Part shown: in pieces, positions 1,915 to 10,850 of the stretch | How positions within the stretch are numbered: position 1 is the stretch's first letter | Layout: every line of letters starts with the position of its first letter | Source of the DNA: a virus | Lineage: Duplodnaviria > Heunggongvirae > Uroviricota > Caudoviricetes | DNA: 10,947 nt | IMG/VR virus record: IMGVR_UViG_2648501669_000001 | Reading direction: 5' to 3' (one strand) | Program-made: the position numbers and the translations under genes | Notes under the pieces: generated by a model | Told to the model about the DNA's origin: nothing | Seen by the model: only the letters and a program-made list of their open reading frames with translations | Databases searched by the model: none

Positions 1915-3969
1915 ATGACAACAAAACAATTCCGTCGTAGTGTTGCGGTAGATACCCCTGATTTTATCGAAGAAAAAGACGAACGAATTATTGAATTGGC
2001 TTTCTCAAGCGAGGCTCCTTATACACGTTATTACATGAATCAGGACGGCGAGCAAGTCGAATTAAAAGAGATTCTCGTACACGATGAATCAGCGGTTGAT
2101 CTATCCGTTTTAAACGAGACTAACGCAAGTCTTCTGTTTAATCACAATCTGGATCTTCATATCGGCAAGATTGTTCCTGGCTCCGCTCGTATTGACGAAG
2201 ACCGTGTAGGTCGTTGCCTTGTCCAATTCTCCAAAGTAGGCCAACTGGCTAATGAATGCTTTGAGAAGGTAAAAGAGGGAACACTTTCACAAGTTAGCGT
2301 CGGTTATAACGTTCTTGATGGCAAAGCCGATTTTAACAAAGGGATCTATTATGTTACACGCTGGCAACCTTTCGAATGCAGTCTTGTAACGTGTGCCGCA
2401 GATCCATTTAATGCGGGTGTTGGACGCTCTCTAAATACAGACAACGAAATGATTGTTTTGGAGGGTGAACAAGTGGAAGACGAAATTAAAGATACTCCGG
2501 TCGAAGAAATTAAACCGGAAGATGAAGAAAAACGTTCCGAAGAAGAGAAAGAGGAACAAGAAAATGAAGAAATTGATTCCGATTCTGGAAATAGTGCTGA
2601 CAGTGGCGAAGATGTGGAAGAACCGCAAGAAGTAACGCCAGAAGAAAAAGAAGAACGTTCCGAAGATGAACCGGAAGAAACAGAAGAACTAAATAAAGAT
2701 ACAGACGAGAACGACGAAACGGAAAATACATCCGAACCAGTCGAAGAAGAAAAGATTGAAGACGAAGAAAAACCGTTTGAACGTTCTCGCGAAGATACCG
2801 CCGAAATTCGTGCTATCGGAAAACATCTAAATATCTCCGAAGACGTGATTGAAGCTGCAATTAAAGATAGTGCCGTGACTATTGAAAATTTTAAAGAAAA
2901 AGCACGCGCACTAAATACTACCGAATCTAAAACTTTTGTTAAAGGAAAAATTACCATGACCGATACCATTAAAACTCTGGAATCCCGTTTCGATCTTAAT
3001 AAAGCTGTACGTGCAATCGCAGAGGGTAAAGCCCTGACTGGCGCAGAAGCTGAATATTCTCAGGAAGAAGCACGTAAAGCCGCAGCGCGTGGTCGTGCGC
3101 AGCGTTCTAACTCCGTATTCATTCCGGCGTCCGCTCTGCGTGCTAGCCAGAACATGGAATCTCTGAAACCAGTAGTTGGTGAAGAAATCCGCCATGATTG
3201 CTTCGTTGATATGATCATGGAACGTTCTATTCTGGGTAAATTGGGTGTGCGTACCATTAACGCAACTGGTCCTGTTTCTCTGCCGTCTCTGACTTCCAGC
3301 AATCTGGAAAACTTCGGTTTTGTTGCAGAAGGTCAATCCGCTGGTGAAGGTACTATTAAGTTTGCAGCGCAGCCGATGACTCTCAAGACTTTTAACGGAA
3401 TTGTTCCTGTAACGCGTCAGGCTGCAATCACACTGCCCAATATTGGCGCTATCGTTGGTGAGCACATGCTGAAACACAGTGCTATCGCTCTGGAAAAAGC
3501 GATTCTGTCCAATGCTGCTAACACTAACGCTCGTGATGGTCTGACTAAGATCCTGACCGACGCTGGCAAAGTTAAACAGATTGATTGGACCTATGCCGAG
3601 TTCCTGAAACTGGTAGCTGAACTGACCGACAAAGGTTATAACGAAGCGGATCTGGCATTTGCTACCCGTGGTGTTGTTAAAGCTGAACTGGCAGCGCAAC
3701 TCAAAGCAGCTAATGTTCCGGGCTTCCTGGTAGAAGGCGATAAACTGGTTAACCGTCCGATCTATGGCTCTGGTGTAGTTGCTCAGGATACCATGCTGTT
3801 TGGTGACTTTAGCTCCCTTGTTGTTGCAGACTTCGGATCGCTGGAACTGGATTGCGACGATACCACAGGTCGCGCGGCTGGCAACCTGTACTTCCGTGTA
3901 TGGGCTGATCTGGATTGGGCTGTTATGGACCATAGCGCACTGACCGTAGTTCAGAAAAAAGTTGACTGA
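1915..3969 (+). CDS. Prohead protease - acidic scaffold/delta linker - HK97-fold major capsid protein fusion
   Basis: 684-aa ORF with AAGGTGA Shine-Dalgarno. The N-terminal ~170 aa look like an HK97-type prohead protease. Residues ~183-300 are a hyper-acidic low-complexity linker (EEKRSEEEKEEQENEE...). The C-terminal ~290 aa are HK97-fold capsid-like (e.g. GDFSSLVVADFGSLELD). It sits immediately after the portal. Confidence 0.8.
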   Translation: MTTKQFRRSVAVDTPDFIEEKDERIIELAFSSEAPYTRYYMNQDGEQVELKEILVHDESAVDLSVLNETNASLLFNHNLDLHIGKIVPGSARIDEDRVGRCLVQFSKVGQLANECFEKVKEGTLSQVSVGYNVLDGKADFNKGIYYVTRWQPFECSLVTCAADPFNAGVGRSLNTDNEMIVLEGEQVEDEIKDTPVEEIKPEDEEKRSEEEKEEQENEEIDSDSGNSADSGEDVEEPQEVTPEEKEERSEDEPEETEELNKDTDENDETENTSEPVEEEKIEDEEKPFERSREDTAEIRAIGKHLNISEDVIEAAIKDSAVTIENFKEKARALNTTESKTFVKGKITMTDTIKTLESRFDLNKAVRAIAEGKALTGAEAEYSQEEARKAAARGRAQRSNSVFIPASALRASQNMESLKPVVGEEIRHDCFVDMIMERSILGKLGVRTINATGPVSLPSLTSSNLENFGFVAEGQSAGEGTIKFAAQPMTLKTFNGIVPVTRQAAITLPNIGAIVGEHMLKHSAIALEKAILSNAANTNARDGLTKILTDAGKVKQIDWTYAEFLKLVAELTDKGYNEADLAFATRGVVKAELAAQLKAANVPGFLVEGDKLVNRPIYGSGVVAQDTMLFGDFSSLVVADFGSLELDCDDTTGRAAGNLYFRVWADLDWAVMDHSALTVVQKKVD

Positions 3970-4098
3970 ACTCCTGTAGAACCTTCTGAACCTTCCCCCG
4001 ATTCGGGGGAAGAAAATCTGATTCCTAAACCGGAAGAAGAATCCCAGACGGTTACGGCGAAAGCCACAGCAAAACGAGGCCGCAAGCCTAAAGAATGA
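3970..4098 (+). other. In-frame open extension after the capsid UGA stop (42 codons ending ...VTAKATAKRGRKPKE); candidate readthrough product
   Basis: Same frame as 1915-3969, with no stop codon until TGA at 4096-4098. The stop context is UGA-A. It contains the 36-bp core repeat 4051-4086 that is identical to 9994-10029. Confidence 0.4.
4051..4086 (+). repeat. 36-bp exact direct repeat, copy 1 (gttacggcgaaagccacagcaaaacgaggccgcaag); encodes VTAKATAKRGRK
   Basis: Identical to 9994-10029. The flanking sequence is also similar at DNA and peptide level. Confidence 0.9.
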
Positions 4099-4103
4099 TA
4101 ATT

Positions 4104-4130
4104 AGCCCTGCCTAGTGCGGGGCTTTTTTG
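4104..4130 (+). terminator. Rho-independent terminator downstream of the capsid gene and its extension
   Basis: GC-rich hairpin agccctgc / CTAGT loop / gcggggct followed by TTTTTT. Confidence 0.6.
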
Positions 4131-5779: not shown

Positions 5780-8700
5780 ATGCAATCAATCCAATTTAAA
5801 CGCACACAAACGGCTGGTAAAAAACCAACGCCGGAACAATTATCACAGGGTGAATTGGCTATTAACCTTGCTGATCACGTTCTGTATACCAAAGATAAAA
5901 ATAACGCAGTAGTTCAAATCTCTGTTTCTCCAGAAAAACACGCTGAACTTAACACGAAAGTAGACCAGAATAAAACTAGCACTGACCGTGTTATTGCTTC
6001 CAACAAACAAGAGGCCGCTAATAATCTGGCTAGTGTTAAAGCTGAACTGAATCAGACTATTACCGCTAAAGACACCGCAACCAATAAGCGCATTGATGCT
6101 ACCAACACCACTGTTAGTAACTTAACCCAGACAGTTACGGCAAATAAAACCGATGCCGACACTAAGATCAATAACCTTACGGGGACCGTATCTGCGAATA
6201 AGACCGCAATTGAAAGAACCGTTGCCGCAAACAAATCTGATGCAGATAGCAAACATGCAGCTTTAACGAAAACGGTCACTGACAATAACACCGCGATTAA
6301 CAACAAGGTTAATACCACTAACACCAACGTTAGCAACTTAACTAAAACTGTTACTGCAAATAAAACCGATGCAGATAACAAAATTTCTAGCTTAACTAGC
6401 ACGGTTGCAGCTAACAAAACAGCGATTGAAAAGGTCGTTTCCGACAACAAGAAAGATGCTGATACTAAAATCAGTAACCTTACTGGCACTGTGAATAGTA
6501 ACCATACCGCTATTAACAACAAGGTAGACCAGAACAAATCATCGACCGATGCCGCAATTACAGCCGCCAACAAGCGAATTGATGGTATTGAAGGTAGTGC
6601 TAACGCAGCATATATCAAGAAGAACACAAAGACCTATCACGGCGCGTATTTGTATAGCAAGACTGGTAACTATCTGGAAGATTCAACCGCGAGAGATCTT
6701 AATTACTTCGGTGCATTCCGTACCAATGGTCAAGATGGACTCATGGATCTAACCCTTAACGTTCCTCACTCTTCCGGTAAAGCGCATGGTCGAGGATTTA
6801 CTTTCCGTTATGCGTCTGGCGGATCTCGTGTTGAAACCTATGGTTTTGATGCTCAGGGACAAAAAGCGTTTAGCTATAAAATGTATCACGAAGGGGATAA
6901 ACCGACTCCTGCTGAAATTGGCGCATATACCAAAGGCGAAATTGATAAGATGTTTATTAAAAATGTCACAATGTCTGTTCCTTCTGGTAGTGAATCCCGT
7001 GCTTATTTCAAGATTGCTACGGCTACGATCCCACAAAATGGTCGTATGGTAATGCTTCGTATCTTCGGTGGTAATGGTTATAACGTTAACTCCTATGATC
7101 AGGTTGATTTCCTTGAAATTGTTATCCGTTCCGGTAACAATAACCCGAAAGGCGTTAGTATTGCTGCTTATCGTCGAAACTCTTTGAACGTTCATCAAGT
7201 ATTTGCGGTTAATACTTCCGGTGATAACTACGACATTTACGTTAACTACGGTCGTTATACTGATAACGTTATTGTCGAATATGGTAAGACTAGCGGTGTT
7301 TCACTGACTGTTCATGACACCCCAGCTATGACTAACGTTAAGCCGTCTACTGGTGTTACAGATGGACGTGTTATTACAATGTTCAACACCGAAAACAAGG
7401 CCGGAACGTTGATGTTTGATAATAACGGACAGGGTACATATGATATTGTCAGTTTGAATAACGATTCAGGTACTGGTAAAAAATATCTTCGTAAATTCCG
7501 TAGTAAAGCCGCAGAAACAATCTGGCATGAAACTGTTCAAGGTAACGTTTATCGTTTAGCGACTGGTACTACCGATTCTAGCGAAGTTCTACGAATCACT
7601 GGTCGCACCATGTTTACTGGTAAAGGTGTATTTGATGCCGGACAAAACGTTCTTAGATTAGAGCGTCCTAGTAATCAATCAAACTATATTGAATGGCAAG
7701 ACCGCCGCAATGGTGCTAATGCTCGTCAAGGTTGGATTGGTTTTGGTAGTGCTGAAACAAATAACTTCCAATGGTATAGCGATCAGGGGAAAAACTCATT
7801 TCAGCTAGAAGCTAACGGTCAATGCTCTATTACCACTGGTGCAACTAAAATTGTATATACAAACGGCGAGTATGTAGCTGCTAACTCAAATGCATTCCGT
7901 ATGATTTACGGCAATTATGGTGCATTTTGGCGCAATGACTCCGCAAAAGTTTATCTTCTGTCAACGGCTGAAAACGATAAGTTTGGTGGTTGGAATACTT
8001 ATCGACCATTCATTTATGATCTGACTTCCGGTAACGTTCAATTAGGCGGTGATGGTAACGAAGATGCATTAACGTTAGAACGTGCAAGCCGTGCCGCTCG
8101 TTTTAGTAATGACGTTTACATTAAGAAAGGTTTTTTGACTTTCGACGCTGGGCGTTCTGGATCGCGTGATTATATTCGATTTAATCATTGGGGCGATAGC
8201 AACAACGCCCGTGATAACGTTTTATACCTCGAAGACAGCAAAGGTCGCCATTTCAGCACCGAACGTAATATGGCTACAGGTGGACTAAAGGCATATTTCT
8301 TAGGTGATCTTGAAGTTGCTGGTCAAATGAGATGGGGTAAGAATACCGGACAATCTAGCTTCAATATTCGTGCATGGGGTAATGATACTCGTAAACAAGT
8401 ATTAGAATGCGCAGATGAAAGCGGCTGGCATTTCTACACACAGCGTGCTGGCGGTCCTGGTACTACCGCAATCGAGTTTAGCGTAAACGGTAAAATTAAC
8501 GCTCCCCAACTGTCTATTAGTCAGGATGCAACCATTCCTAAGTTTAATAGCGGTTTTGGTGTTGGTGTTGCTAACGGATTGGGTGGAAATTCTATTGTTT
8601 TAGGCGATAGTGATACTGGATTTAAACAAAACGGTGATGGTGTCCTTGATACCTACGCTAATAACGTTAATGTTGTTCGTCACACATCTGGCGGCATTAC

Positions 8701-9388
8701 CTTTAACCGTCGTGTTGTTGTTGCTAACAAAAATGGTTTAGGTTATTCCGATATCTCTGATGTAACTCGTGACCGTGCTCCATTCTTGGTTAACATGGAT
8801 AGTATTAAGGGGTCTGGTGCATATTTCCCTATTATCGCTGGCTATAGTAACTTAGGTGATGTTGGTTATCGTCAGTCCTTCGAGTTTGGTTGGACGGGTA
8901 GCGGTTCGACTCACGGTTGGCGTACTGGTATTATCCGTATGCGTGGCGATAACGCCAACGGGCAGCAAGCACGCTGGGAATTTACTATGGATGGTGACTT
9001 TACCGCAGGTCGTAACGGTAGCTTTAACGATGTTTACATTCGCTCTGACTCCCGTTTGAAGATTAACAAGGAAGAATTACAGGACGGCGCATTAGAGAAA
9101 GTAAACTCCCTGAAAGTCTACACCTACGATAAAGTTAAATCTCTTTCAGATGACACAGTGATTAAACGCGAAGTAGGTATTATTGCTCAGGATCTGGAAG
9201 AAGTGTTGCCGGAAGCAGTAGGTATTCAATCCACCGAAGATCCAGAACAACCGGAAGCAATTAAGACTATTTCTAACTCTGCTGTTAATGCCTTGATTAT
9301 TAAAGCTATTCAGGAAATGGACGCCAAATATCAAGCTAAGATTGAAGCATTGACTAAAGAGATTGCCGAACTCAAAGCAACTAAATAA
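5780..9388 (+). CDS. Tail fibre protein with a repetitive shaft and a C-terminal intramolecular chaperone (peptidase S74-like) domain
   Basis: 1202-aa ORF with GAGGTGA Shine-Dalgarno. The N-terminus has a tail-fibre anchor-like motif (KKPTPEQLSQGELAINL). Tandem T/N/K-rich repeats form the shaft. GLGGNSIVLGDSDTGFKQNGDGVLD and ADESGWHFYTQR resemble the conserved distal region of P2 gpH-type fibres as I recall them. The C-terminus has an SDSRLK (S-D-x-R-x-K) autoprocessing motif followed by a coiled-coil-like tail. Confidence 0.85.
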   Translation: MQSIQFKRTQTAGKKPTPEQLSQGELAINLADHVLYTKDKNNAVVQISVSPEKHAELNTKVDQNKTSTDRVIASNKQEAANNLASVKAELNQTITAKDTATNKRIDATNTTVSNLTQTVTANKTDADTKINNLTGTVSANKTAIERTVAANKSDADSKHAALTKTVTDNNTAINNKVNTTNTNVSNLTKTVTANKTDADNKISSLTSTVAANKTAIEKVVSDNKKDADTKISNLTGTVNSNHTAINNKVDQNKSSTDAAITAANKRIDGIEGSANAAYIKKNTKTYHGAYLYSKTGNYLEDSTARDLNYFGAFRTNGQDGLMDLTLNVPHSSGKAHGRGFTFRYASGGSRVETYGFDAQGQKAFSYKMYHEGDKPTPAEIGAYTKGEIDKMFIKNVTMSVPSGSESRAYFKIATATIPQNGRMVMLRIFGGNGYNVNSYDQVDFLEIVIRSGNNNPKGVSIAAYRRNSLNVHQVFAVNTSGDNYDIYVNYGRYTDNVIVEYGKTSGVSLTVHDTPAMTNVKPSTGVTDGRVITMFNTENKAGTLMFDNNGQGTYDIVSLNNDSGTGKKYLRKFRSKAAETIWHETVQGNVYRLATGTTDSSEVLRITGRTMFTGKGVFDAGQNVLRLERPSNQSNYIEWQDRRNGANARQGWIGFGSAETNNFQWYSDQGKNSFQLEANGQCSITTGATKIVYTNGEYVAANSNAFRMIYGNYGAFWRNDSAKVYLLSTAENDKFGGWNTYRPFIYDLTSGNVQLGGDGNEDALTLERASRAARFSNDVYIKKGFLTFDAGRSGSRDYIRFNHWGDSNNARDNVLYLEDSKGRHFSTERNMATGGLKAYFLGDLEVAGQMRWGKNTGQSSFNIRAWGNDTRKQVLECADESGWHFYTQRAGGPGTTAIEFSVNGKINAPQLSISQDATIPKFNSGFGVGVANGLGGNSIVLGDSDTGFKQNGDGVLDTYANNVNVVRHTSGGITFNRRVVVANKNGLGYSDISDVTRDRAPFLVNMDSIKGSGAYFPIIAGYSNLGDVGYRQSFEFGWTGSGSTHGWRTGIIRMRGDNANGQQARWEFTMDGDFTAGRNGSFNDVYIRSDSRLKINKEELQDGALEKVNSLKVYTYDKVKSLSDDTVIKREVGIIAQDLEEVLPEAVGIQSTEDPEQPEAIKTISNSAVNALIIKAIQEMDAKYQAKIEALTKEIAELKATK
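6101..6530 (+). repeat. Tandem in-frame coding repeat in the fibre shaft (two ~72-aa units built from ~12-aa sub-repeats)
   Basis: Unit A (TNTTVSNLTQTVTANKTDADTKINNLTGTVSANKTAIER...TAINNKV) and unit B (TTNTNVSNLTKTVTANKTDADNKISSLTSTVAANKTAIEK...TAINNKV). The antisense ORF 6052-6627 is a shadow of this repeat. Confidence 0.8.
9044..9388 (+). other. Predicted C-terminal intramolecular chaperone domain of the fibre, released by autoproteolysis at Ser ~1089
   Basis: SDSRLK at 9044-9061 matches the S-D-x-R-x-K Ser/Lys dyad pattern of tail-spike and fibre chaperone domains (endosialidase, T5 pb1) as I recall it. The domain is ~113 aa, a typical size. Confidence 0.55.
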
Positions 9389-9444: not shown

Positions 9445-9915
9445 ATGTCTCAATTTAATGATATTTTTACTGGTGGTCTGGTAAGTCTGTTCTATCACGC
9501 TGATACCACTAACACCGCTCTCGATCACTCCGGTTACGAAGAAATTAAAGAGTGTGCTGGTTTTCCTGAAACTGGTATCGAGCGCGGTACTGTAGAAGTT
9601 AAATCCTTCTCTTCTCAGTATAACCGTAAGCTGGTAGGGAAACTGAACGTTCCTGATCTGACTCTGACCGTTAACTACATCCCAGGCGATGCGGTGCACG
9701 AGAAGCTCATTAAAGCTGCCGAAGACGGTACTCGAATTCAGATTAAGATTGAATACTATGTTGATGCAGCAAAACAGACTGGTATTCGCACCGCTTTCAA
9801 CGGCTTTATTTCTAAAGTTGCTATGAACGGTGGCGATGAAGAAGTTGTAACCAAAGAGTTTACCTTCGCGGTGGACGGAAAGCCGATCAAACAGGAAATC
9901 TTCACTGCCGGATGA
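9445..9915 (+). CDS. Tail tube protein paralog (tube domain only)
   Basis: 156-aa ORF with AAGGGG Shine-Dalgarno. It is homologous to the N-terminal domain of ORF 4866-5699 (MSQFNDIFTG vs DNLDIFTG; GKLNVPDLTLTVNYIPGDAVHEKLIKAAEDGT vs GYRRLEPTTLTLNRVLDDEHQAMLMKAVEDKT). Confidence 0.6.
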   Translation: MSQFNDIFTGGLVSLFYHADTTNTALDHSGYEEIKECAGFPETGIERGTVEVKSFSSQYNRKLVGKLNVPDLTLTVNYIPGDAVHEKLIKAAEDGTRIQIKIEYYVDAAKQTGIRTAFNGFISKVAMNGGDEEVVTKEFTFAVDGKPIKQEIFTAG

Positions 9916-10041
9916 ACTAACGAAGAACTTCCTTTAATAGAACCGGAACCACTACCGGAACATGAAGCGGTGGGGATTCCAGAAGTAGAAGAAGTTACGG
10001 CGAAAGCCACAGCAAAACGAGGCCGCAAGGCTAAGAATTAA
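9916..10041 (+). other. In-frame open extension after the tube-paralog UGA stop (41 codons ending ...VTAKATAKRGRKAKN); candidate readthrough product
   Basis: Same frame as 9445-9915, with no stop until TAA at 10039-10041. The stop context is UGA-A, identical to the capsid case. It contains the 36-bp repeat 9994-10029. The reading frame here is taken from the ORF track. Confidence 0.4.
9994..10029 (+). repeat. 36-bp exact direct repeat, copy 2
   Basis: Identical to 4051-4086. Confidence 0.9.
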
Positions 10042-10045
10042 TTTT

Positions 10046-10075
10046 AAGCCCTGCCTTAATGGTGGGGCTTTTTTA
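10046..10075 (+). terminator. Rho-independent terminator downstream of the tube paralog and its extension
   Basis: Hairpin aagccctgcc / ttaat / ggtggggctt followed by TTTTTT. It is homologous in position and sequence to the terminator at 4104-4130. Confidence 0.55.
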
Positions 10076-10089
10076 TTGGAGTAATCAAA

Positions 10090-10596
10090 ATGGCAAATGT
10101 CGTTAATAAGCCCGGCTGGGTCGGATCATCTGCTGTATCGGTGACGGGTAAGCGATGGATGAAAGAAGCATTAACAGCTTTAAAAGTTCCGGCTCCGCGT
10201 AATATGTCGGCAATGGCTGGTCGTGGTATGGATACGGTTGTAGCTACTGCATCGTGGTCTACTTCATTGGGTAATAACTGGGGTGTAACTGCTTCAAACT
10301 ATCCTGTTTCCGGTATGCAAAGCAAAGGATCTATGGAGAACCCCGAAAACGTGGGCGTAGGCCGTCTAATTGGCGTTATCGTTGGTCAATTCAATGGCGG
10401 TACTCCTACTATGGCTGTATATCTCCAGAACGGTAGAGCGGGGAATATAACCGTTAATTTGGGTGGTGCTGCTGTCACTGTTCCTTATAACAGTATGCAA
10501 AGTGGTTTTCATTACTACTGGTTAAGCAATCCTCCGGCAGCTTTCCTCAATAACATTAAGAAGACTGGCACTAAGCAGACTTTGAAAATCTCTTAA
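10090..10596 (+). CDS. Hypothetical protein (168 aa), G/S/T/N/W/Y-rich, possibly a structural or receptor-binding accessory
   Basis: ORF with GGAG Shine-Dalgarno and a TAA stop 14 bp before the IS1 terminus. No family was recognised. Confidence 0.55.
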   Translation: MANVVNKPGWVGSSAVSVTGKRWMKEALTALKVPAPRNMSAMAGRGMDTVVATASWSTSLGNNWGVTASNYPVSGMQSKGSMENPENVGVGRLIGVIVGQFNGGTPTMAVYLQNGRAGNITVNLGGAAVTVPYNSMQSGFHYYWLSNPPAAFLNNIKKTGTKQTLKIS

Positions 10597-10610: not shown

Positions 10611-10850
10611 GGTGATGCTGCCAACTTACTGATTTAGTGTATGATGGTGTTTTTGAGGTGCTCCAGTGGCTTCTGTTTCTATCAGCTGTCCCTCCTGTTC
10701 AGCTACTGACGGGGTGGTGCGTAACGGCAAAAGCACCGCCGGACATCAGCGCTATCTCTGCTCTCACTGCCGTAAAACATGGCAACTGCAGTTCACTTAC
10801 ACCGCTTCTCAACCCGGTACGCACCAGAAAATCATTGATATGGCCATGAC
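10611..10850 (+). mobile_element. Truncated IS1 copy (terminal inverted repeat through the 5' part of insA)
   Basis: Matches the canonical IS1 sequence from base 1 (GGTGATGCTGCCAACTTACTGAT) for ~239 bp as recalled. Mismatches begin at ~10850 and similarity is lost by ~10865. Confidence 0.9.

Follow-up and report, generated by a model that had tools for sequence, protein, structure and literature searches.

Does translation of a phage capsid gene end at its UGA codon when the same reading frame stays open for another 42 codons and the transcription terminator lies only beyond them? This question is raised by a 10,947-nucleotide stretch of tailed-phage DNA (Caudoviricetes, IMG/VR record IMGVR_UViG_2648501669_000001; hereafter the window, numbered from its first letter), in which a protease-capsid fusion gene ends in UGA followed by A and by such an extension. 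A first-pass annotation of the window had proposed that leaky UGA readthrough adds a basic-ended tail to a minority of capsid subunits, and had pointed to a similar arrangement behind a second gene, identified here as the tail-tube gene. From the comparison of related loci presented below, we consider it rather likely that the extensions are translated by UGA readthrough and maintained by selection, the signal itself being real and conserved, and its role in recoding probably functional.

The capsid gene and its 42-codon extension

The 3' end of the capsid gene is organised as follows.

1915-3969, + strand: protease-capsid fusion gene, an open reading frame (ORF) of 684 amino acids (aa) comprising an S78 prohead protease, an acidic scaffold-like linker and an HK97-type major capsid protein
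3967-3970, + strand: putative leaky stop UGA-A closing the capsid gene (TGA at 3967-3969, A at +4)
3970-4095, + strand: capsid extension of 42 in-frame codons, translated as TPVEPSEPSPDSGEENLIPKPEEESQTVTAKATAKRGRKPKE, with no stop inside
4096-4101, + strand: tandem strong stop TGA TAA closing the extension (TAA TAA or TGA TAA in homologs)
4104-4130, + strand: intrinsic terminator (predicted fold), GCCCUGCC ... GCGGGGC plus U6, with a GC-rich stem of 8 base pairs (bp)

Thus, the arrangement described in the first-pass annotation, namely a UGA-A, 42 open codons and a terminator only afterwards, is all present where it had been placed. The Pfam domains Peptidase_S78 (7.4e-10, residues 59-162) and Phage_capsid (4.2e-14, residues 427-680) are found in one polypeptide, which makes the gene product an HK97-type capsid protein fused to an S78 protease; its RefSeq name is ‘phage major capsid protein’. 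The acidic linker and basic end that had been read from the extension are borne out by its translation: a net-acidic, proline-containing linker (3970-4059) is followed by a cationic tip made up of the last 12 codons (4060-4095), with a net charge of +5. No in-frame ATG, GTG or TTG occurs in the extension and no + strand ORF is listed there; the extension is therefore not a separate gene. An antisense ORF on the minus strand (3951-4085) was considered and rejected, as it is broken in some variants and looks purely mechanical.

Between the protease and capsid domains, about 130 residues (residues ~170-300, window 2400-2800) are extremely rich in Glu and Asp and contain internal direct repeats (D3, D4, D6, D7 and D11). 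The length of this stretch varies greatly among relatives, and it probably represents a scaffolding or delta-like segment lost at maturation.

The tail-tube gene and the block common to both sites

The second gene with an extension lies towards the other end of the window.

9445-9915, + strand: lambda gpV-like tail-tube gene, 156 aa, ending in TGA (9913-9915) then A; Pfam Phage_TTP_11 and Phage_TTP_12
9916-10038, + strand: tube extension of 41 in-frame codons, translated as TNEELPLIEPEPLPEHEAVGIPEVEEVTAKATAKRGRKAKN, with an acidic Glu-Pro-rich linker and a tip of net charge +6 over the last 12 residues
10039-10041, + strand: TAA closing the tube extension
10046-10076, + strand: intrinsic terminator (predicted fold), a 10-bp GC-rich stem then U6
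4051-4113 and 9994-10056, + strand: direct repeat D2, 63 nucleotides (nt) at 87% identity, covering the tip codons, the stop codons and the 5' arm of the terminator

An AlphaFold2 (AF2) model of the tube protein (predicted local distance difference test score, pLDDT, 74.5) has the lambda tail tube gpV as its best match (8k36_A, E 1.7e-7, template-modelling (TM) score 0.62) and also matches 7t2e and 7t4f, with a probability of 1.00 and TM scores of 0.61-0.62 across the three. Together with the Pfam matches, this fold match to the N-terminal domain of gpV places the protein among the gpV-like tail-tube proteins.

The first-pass annotation had described a near-identical module following a tail-tube paralog, and had argued that two independent genes were unlikely to share it by chance. 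In fact no paralog is involved, the second gene being itself the one for the tail tube. The two sites are indeed alike over D2, of which the first 36 nt (4051-4086 and 9994-10029) are identical, but their linkers have different sequences, the likeness there being confined to an acidic, proline-containing composition. Since the last 36 nt are identical and have clearly been exchanged between sites, to speak of two independent genes overstates the case.

Within the identical 36-nt block, a mini-hairpin with a GNRA loop, GGC-GAAA-GCC, can be drawn at 4056-4065 and 9999-10008. It varies to GGA-GAAA-UCC in locus L149 (a compensatory change that alters two amino acids) and to GGU...GCC, with a wobble pair, in L029. 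Given its 3-bp stem, this hairpin may be due to chance.

Conservation of the stop and of the open frame

Related loci were gathered from complete E. coli genomes (15 loci; 54 of 5,426 genomes match) and from IMG/VR (47 loci). The capsid extension set comprised 24 unique sequences of seven lengths from 41 loci, to which four further loci, including a 27-codon form, were added; the tube extension set comprised 12 unique sequences from 22 loci, resulting in 36 unique sequences for the two genes.

TGA-A followed by an open in-frame extension was found in 45 of 46 E. coli-type capsid loci. TGA-A is kept across at least 14 different flanking-codon contexts, and two capsid clades at about 40% protein identity both end in this way. 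Capsid extensions are 27, 28, 33, 35, 42, 43, 44 or 45 codons long, all eight lengths being whole-codon. Frame 0 contains no stop in any of the 36 unique extensions or in the four further loci, and the other two frames of the + strand are always closed. As to the tube, each of the 22 alleles with 86% identity or more to that of the window ends in TGA-A with an extension of 36, 39 or 41 codons. Homologs with the downstream DNA out of frame or interrupted by stops had been named in advance as evidence to the contrary; 45 of the 46 capsid loci, and every one of the 22 tube loci of the window’s type, show neither. Two hallmarks of programmed readthrough of the Qβ A1 type are therefore seen here: a stop of the leaky kind, UGA-A, invariant in 45 capsid and 22 tube loci, and a conserved, stop-free, in-frame downstream ORF, with a single exception (L006, described below).

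Where the extension is absent, the stop differs. The other 14 E. coli-type tube alleles (59-73% identical to that of the window) end in TAA-T without extension; in a syntenic Salmonella relative both genes end in TAA-T with the terminator directly adjoining; and more distant capsid relatives end in TAA as well. In L001, the 33.8-kb locus of the prophage of E. coli strain 39EVA, TAA closes 22 of 28 genes, and TGA-A is confined to the genes for capsid and tube, for which translation in this prophage should be heaviest. A passage of Wei and Xia (PMC5289835), citing Engelberg-Kulka 1981, gives UGA with A at +4 as the context most prone to misreading by tRNA-Trp in E. coli, and U at +4 as that with the least UGA readthrough.

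Both genes are followed by an intrinsic terminator, i.e. a GC-rich hairpin plus a U run, which is kept in homologs (for the capsid gene, in all those compared). Translation of the extension might serve the terminator and not the peptide: with the second stop 5-9 nt upstream, readthrough ribosomes would mask the stem, coupling the rate of readthrough to transcription of the head-completion and tail genes downstream. The second stop is always just upstream of the terminator stem, and the weak constraint on the peptide described below would fit a need for an open frame only. However, the extension-less alleles and the Salmonella relatives already have a normal stop beside the terminator, for which no extension is needed, readthrough of a few percent could shift termination only marginally, and the acidic-then-cationic pattern is left unexplained. 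We regard this explanation as very improbable.

Several searches were directed at natural variants and further occurrences. P0007, a 198-aa protein from an 842-nt metagenome contig (L060, ENA contig k141_243218, 41-637), appeared to be a sense-codon variant with W at the position of the stop, but was rejected because the DNA has TGA there: it is an artefact of gene calling under code 4. It consists of tube, W and extension and, by accident of a gene call in which TGA is Trp, equals the predicted readthrough product. A protein search with capsid, W and extension gave 3 hits only, probably as low-complexity words saturated the candidate list. A peptide-pattern scan of genome contigs gave no match; a 17-mer scan of genome contigs gave 87 hits, of which the three inspected, including the sole one in Enterobacterales, were chance matches in unrelated genes. 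A tblastn search of the extension peptides against isolated phages gave no match, and the nearest capsid among isolated phages is only 33% identical.

Codon usage and charge of the extensions

If the extensions are translated, frame 0 is expected to look like coding sequence. In the capsid extension the codon-usage score is +0.32 bits per codon in frame 0 versus -0.93 and -0.98 in the other frames; in the tube extension it is +0.21 versus -1.19 and -0.84, real coding controls scoring +0.56.

The charge pattern of the encoded peptide is also kept. Over the last 12 residues, the net charge of the tip is +5 in 23 of the 24 unique capsid sequences; each of the 12 unique tube sequences has +5 or +6, and overall the tip stays at +4 to +6 in spite of differing sequences (RGRKPKE, KQRKTKE, KERKTKAK, KVGRPPKAK, RSRKAKD). 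The linker is net negative in every sequence, from -2 to -9. The resemblance of the tip to an AT-hook, suggested in the first-pass annotation, does not hold: KRGRKPKE, KRGRKAKN and KQRKTKE have no match to Pfam AT_hook (PF02178), and the variant KKVGRPPKAK alone approaches it, below threshold (13.2 bits, E 0.088, threshold 17.4).

RNA structure and other decoding routes

Could a structure in the mRNA assist decoding of the UGA? One hairpin in the window bears on this.

3992-4012, + strand: hairpin within the capsid extension (predicted fold, 9 bp), UUCCCCCGA-UUC-GGGGGAA, starting 22 nt after the UGA

A small hairpin had been noticed before at about 3994-4008; it is real, and at 9 bp somewhat larger than had been thought. 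A hairpin of 8-9 bp is predicted about 22 nt after the UGA in all capsid variants of 33-45 codons. The 27- and 28-codon variants have a different hairpin, of 11 bp, 10 nt after the UGA (L005, 7965-8009, and equivalents; AAUUGCCGGAA-GAAA-UUCCGGUAGUU). Changes in this 11-bp hairpin comprise one compensatory replacement of U-A by C-G, in which both mutations alter the peptide (L to S, V to I), three one-sided changes with pairing kept, and one mismatch, and 98.5% of cells are paired versus 3-53% with the partner slid. A covariation test of the 11-bp hairpin, in which shuffles reached the observed covariation in 76-93 of 500 trials, was underpowered, there being too little variation. In the capsid gene, a structure that stimulates readthrough may exist. 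With the UGA in the A site, the 10-nt spacing would put the 11-bp hairpin at the ribosome’s mRNA entry site.

E. coli possesses selenocysteine machinery, and the hairpins of the capsid variants, which lie 10-22 nt past the UGA, could in principle act as a bacterial selenocysteine insertion sequence (SECIS), in which case the UGA would encode selenocysteine. But a permissive Rfam scan (E up to 5) detected no SECIS or other family, the hairpins vary among variants in sequence, position and loop (UUC or GAAA), and the tube extension has no comparable hairpin. Insertion of selenocysteine is almost certainly not what happens here.

Two further routes were examined. Firstly, a suppressor tRNA was sought. 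There is no tRNA gene in L001, and 91-nt calls by ARAGORN in four IMG/VR loci (L021, L027, L038 and L030) were rejected, having Gln or Glu anticodons and no UCA. These tRNA-Gln/Glu calls lie at about 11620-11716 on the minus strand, opposite structural genes and ~600 nt downstream of the capsid stop, and are probably false positives. Secondly, frameshifting was rejected as a route into the extension: the extension continues frame 0, stops close the +1 and +2 frames, and the A6 run before the capsid stop provides no zero-frame slippery heptamer.

Observations that weigh against translation

A number of observations weigh against translation of the extensions, and many of these would be accounted for by an alternative in which the region from UGA to terminator is an untranslated 3' module (an mRNA-stabilising structure, a small RNA derived from the 3' untranslated region, or a recombination linker of the two most expressed late genes), its open frame being a by-product of purine richness. 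Frame 0 stays open in 15.5% of base shuffles for the capsid extension and in 12% for the tube extension, and, because the + strand is purine-rich, minus-strand frames are also open in many variants; frame openness is thus partly due to purine richness, and one sequence taken by itself makes a weak case. Constraint on the amino acids is weak. The ratio of non-synonymous to synonymous polymorphism (pN/pS) is 0.71 in the capsid extension versus 0.46 upstream and 0.43 in the tube extension versus 0.11 upstream, and variable sites by codon position (14/20/18 and 11/8/14) show no third-position excess. Synonymous divergence is lower in the extensions than in the genes, and the RNA of the capsid extension has more structure than RNAs that encode its peptide with other synonymous codons (z -2.4 to -4.6), from which it follows that there is some constraint at the nucleotide or RNA level; for the tube extension the same comparison is weaker (z -1.25 to -1.9). 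The hairpins described above, including one compensatory pair, are kept. In addition, the extension moves with its downstream module across a recombination breakpoint at ~3963, mosaic breakpoints falling at the capsid stop, and tip codons are identical between the two genes within the 36-nt block. The many loci are therefore not independent of one another.

Three more points count on the same side. A sense codon replacing the UGA is seen in no homolog. The tube extension is missing in ~40% of relatives and is therefore an accessory feature. Finally, in the sole capsid exception, L006 (E. coli ETEC1703, 8075-8150), one A has been lost from the A6 run 9 nt before the stop, so that the protein ends in ...QKKLTELL-TAG and the frame of the extension is lost; either the homopolymer was misread in sequencing, or the extension has really been lost, perhaps in a decaying prophage.

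An untranslated module, however, leaves much unexplained: length differences in whole codons, with only frame 0 of the + strand open in 36 unique sequences; coding-like codon usage in frame 0 alone; a tip charge that stays at +4 to +6 while the sequence changes; and UGA-A here versus UAA-U in the extension-less alleles. Nor is there a match to any Rfam family, and constraint on the RNA can coexist with translation. We consider it unlikely that this alternative holds. Taken together, the comparative data show that the open in-frame extension is more than chance.

A second alternative is brought up by the fairly high pN/pS: an ancestral constitutive tail might have been cut off by a nonsense mutation, the downstream sequence being since then an untranslated, drifting relic. 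Short constitutive tails with basic ends are indeed present in relatives (capsid ...EASKAK, tube ...SGLRK, and in E. tarda ...IPEAVAAKEK, which resembles IPEVEEVTAKATAK), although such tails count equally for translation of the extensions, and the frameshifted L006 shows that the tail can be lost. Long constitutive tails were looked for in the wider capsid family and rejected: the 150 representatives listed, most of them ~580-690 aa and matched by the capsid-domain query in their C-terminal half only, end within ~3-25 residues of the aligned fold. To account for the data, a relic would have to survive behind both genes and, while changing in length at least eight times for the capsid and three times for the tube, acquire no stop or frameshift in 45 of 46 capsid loci or in any of the 22 tube loci. 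It would also need to retain coding-like codon usage and a constant tip charge, without the stop ever having turned into the preferred TAA. We find this hard to credit.

UGA readthrough thus remains our preferred reading, with two amendments to the first-pass annotation. The extension had been called peptide-conserved: its frame, tip charge and coding-like codon usage are kept, but purifying selection on the amino acids is weak (pN/pS 0.71 and 0.43). Conservation at the nucleotide level only, which had been named as a contrary outcome, is found in part, in that nucleotide homogenisation or RNA constraint is also present, alongside the frame-0 codon usage and the tip charge. Selection seems to act on composition and charge and not on exact sequence, together with homogenisation at the nucleotide level and perhaps RNA structure.

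A model for the proposed readthrough

In the model that we propose, the majority of ribosomes would end at the UGA and release normal capsid and tube subunits. A small fraction would decode the UGA by a near-cognate tRNA, most likely tRNA-Trp, and go on for 27-45 codons to the strong stop that immediately precedes the terminator. This would yield a minor form of the subunit whose C-terminus bears a disordered tail, composed of a net-acidic, proline-containing spacer and a tip of +4 to +6. The predicted readthrough junctions are VD-X-TPVEPSEPSPDSGEENLIPK for the capsid (...VD-X-TPVEPSEPS...) and ...EIFTAG-X-TNEELPLIEPEPLPEHEAVGIPEVEEVTAK for the tube (...FTAG-X-TNEELP...). The minority stoichiometry of the extended subunits is suggested by the stop codon only, and we infer readthrough itself, its level and the inserted amino acid from the sequence in the same manner.

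Where would such tails be located? The extended form 10B of the T7 capsid protein carries display peptides on the outside of the particle, and on this ground the capsid tail should be external. In lambda gpV, a tube domain of 156 residues is followed, from residue 157, by an immunoglobulin (Ig)-like domain that protrudes outside the tube (PMC8718954). As the tube protein of the window is gpV-like and has 156 aa, its tail should be external too. In each particle, a few subunits would thus be expected to bear tails that project outside head and tail, where these tails would most plausibly provide weak electrostatic adhesion to anionic polymers such as lipopolysaccharide (LPS), capsule, mucus or extracellular DNA. 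The leaky stop would limit the copy number of tails and spare assembly. We hold the adhesion role, suggested by analogy, with much lower confidence than readthrough itself.

In E. coli, the level of UGA readthrough changes with cAMP and with carbon metabolism (PMC10570021). It is conceivable, and we advance it only tentatively as falling somewhat short of an even chance, that this is the first programmed stop-codon readthrough in a double-stranded DNA (dsDNA) tailed phage, using UGA-A, possibly helped by the hairpin in the capsid gene and independent of the selenocysteine machinery, to put a few whiskers, each an acidic stalk with a cationic tip, on head and tail, their number per virion reporting the physiology of the producing cell and resulting in phenotypically mixed progeny.

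Prophage context and contig ends

The DNA of the window belongs to an E. coli prophage, a temperate lambda-like siphovirus that in strain 39EVA is ~36 kb long, lies inside codB and encodes a serine recombinase. The window is also a 100% match to the IMG/VR contig UViG_2740892423_000001. Its ends carry a perfect inverted repeat of 139 nt (21-159 and 10611-10749), which is the left end of IS1 in both orientations (GGTGATGCTGCC...). IS1 runs on to ~10848 and is followed by a degenerate string resembling a Nextera/Tn5 adapter (...CTTATACACATCTGACGCT...), bases 1-20 being unrelated. The contig ends thus look like assembly artefacts at IS1 copies and not like true terminal repeats.

The side tail fibre (5780-9388, 1,202 aa) has Gp34_trimer and Peptidase_S74 chaperone domains and is a mosaic involving gp37, the distal long tail fibre of virulent T-even phages of the Krischvirus group, e.g. 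RB49, at 74-86% nucleotide identity; a gene for a gp38-like adhesin (10090-10596) lies 3' of the tube gene. These features suggest that temperate siphoviruses and T-even myoviruses have exchanged fibres. Prophages with an extension-less tube (L002, L003, L006, L011 and others) have three extra small genes (~100 aa each) between fibre and tube, and in the five annotated E. coli loci of this kind the tube gene is followed by something other than a gp38-like adhesin gene. Presence of the tube extension thus goes together with that of a whole tail-fibre accessory module.

Comparison with known systems

RNA viruses are the textbook case of programmed readthrough. If our reading is correct, tailed dsDNA phages use in-frame readthrough, besides frameshifting, to extend capsid and tail, and decorate their virions with a short charged tail instead of a folded Ig-like domain. 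We found no description of UGA readthrough in a capsid or tail-tube gene of a dsDNA phage in the open-access literature. There is also a consequence for annotation, as pipelines call both genes short and leave ~130 nt unannotated. The pattern of UGA-A, open frame and a terminator only past the second stop can be searched for in other phages, and the prediction is readily testable, since the prophages reside in sequenced E. coli isolates and the junction peptides are defined.

In mechanism, the closest match is the A1 protein of Qβ, likewise encoded by the coat gene of an E. coli phage with a single UGA and an in-frame extension. In Qβ, too, the UGA is followed by A (the extension opening with Thr, ACA), Trp is inserted, and a Gly/Pro-rich linker forms the beginning of the extension. 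About 5% of ribosomes read through the Qβ coat-gene UGA, giving a minor virion coat species needed for infectious particles, and Qβ is the sole bacterial-virus example in the readthrough table of the review cited (PMC7026636, Table 1). Unlike the phage studied here, Qβ is a single-stranded RNA levivirus with an unrelated coat fold and a folded readthrough domain of ~195 aa; here, a dsDNA tailed prophage with an HK97-type capsid would add 27-45 residues without detectable domain, and would do so on the tail tube too.

At the tube, the attachment point, directly after a 156-aa tube domain, is the same as that of the Ig-like domain of lambda gpV (see also the C-terminal Ig domains of T5 pb6 and YSD1), but the gpV domain is constitutive, folded and present on every subunit. 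A role in weak surface adhesion has been proposed for Ig-like decorations (PMC8718954). The SPP1 extension lies outside the tube and is dispensable (PMC8718954), and the tube extension described here appears to be so as well, ~40% of relatives being without it. As regards the AT-hook (PF02178), the likeness is that of a short basic peptide with Gly-Arg-Pro, as in the variant KKVGRPPKAK; the match is below threshold, and here charge alone is conserved.

In biology, the closest systems are the frameshift extensions of T3/T7 gene 10B, Lactobacillus phage A2, SPP1 gp17.1* and the Listeria phages, in which each structural gene gives two products and a minority of subunits is extended, as is predicted here. 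In the Listeria phages PSA, A118 and A500, capsid and major tail proteins are both extended in this manner (PMC5009743). Those systems use a +1 or -1 shift and most add a folded Ig-like or FN3 domain, whereas here the extension lies in frame behind a UGA and would add a short charged tail in which Pfam recognises no folded domain.

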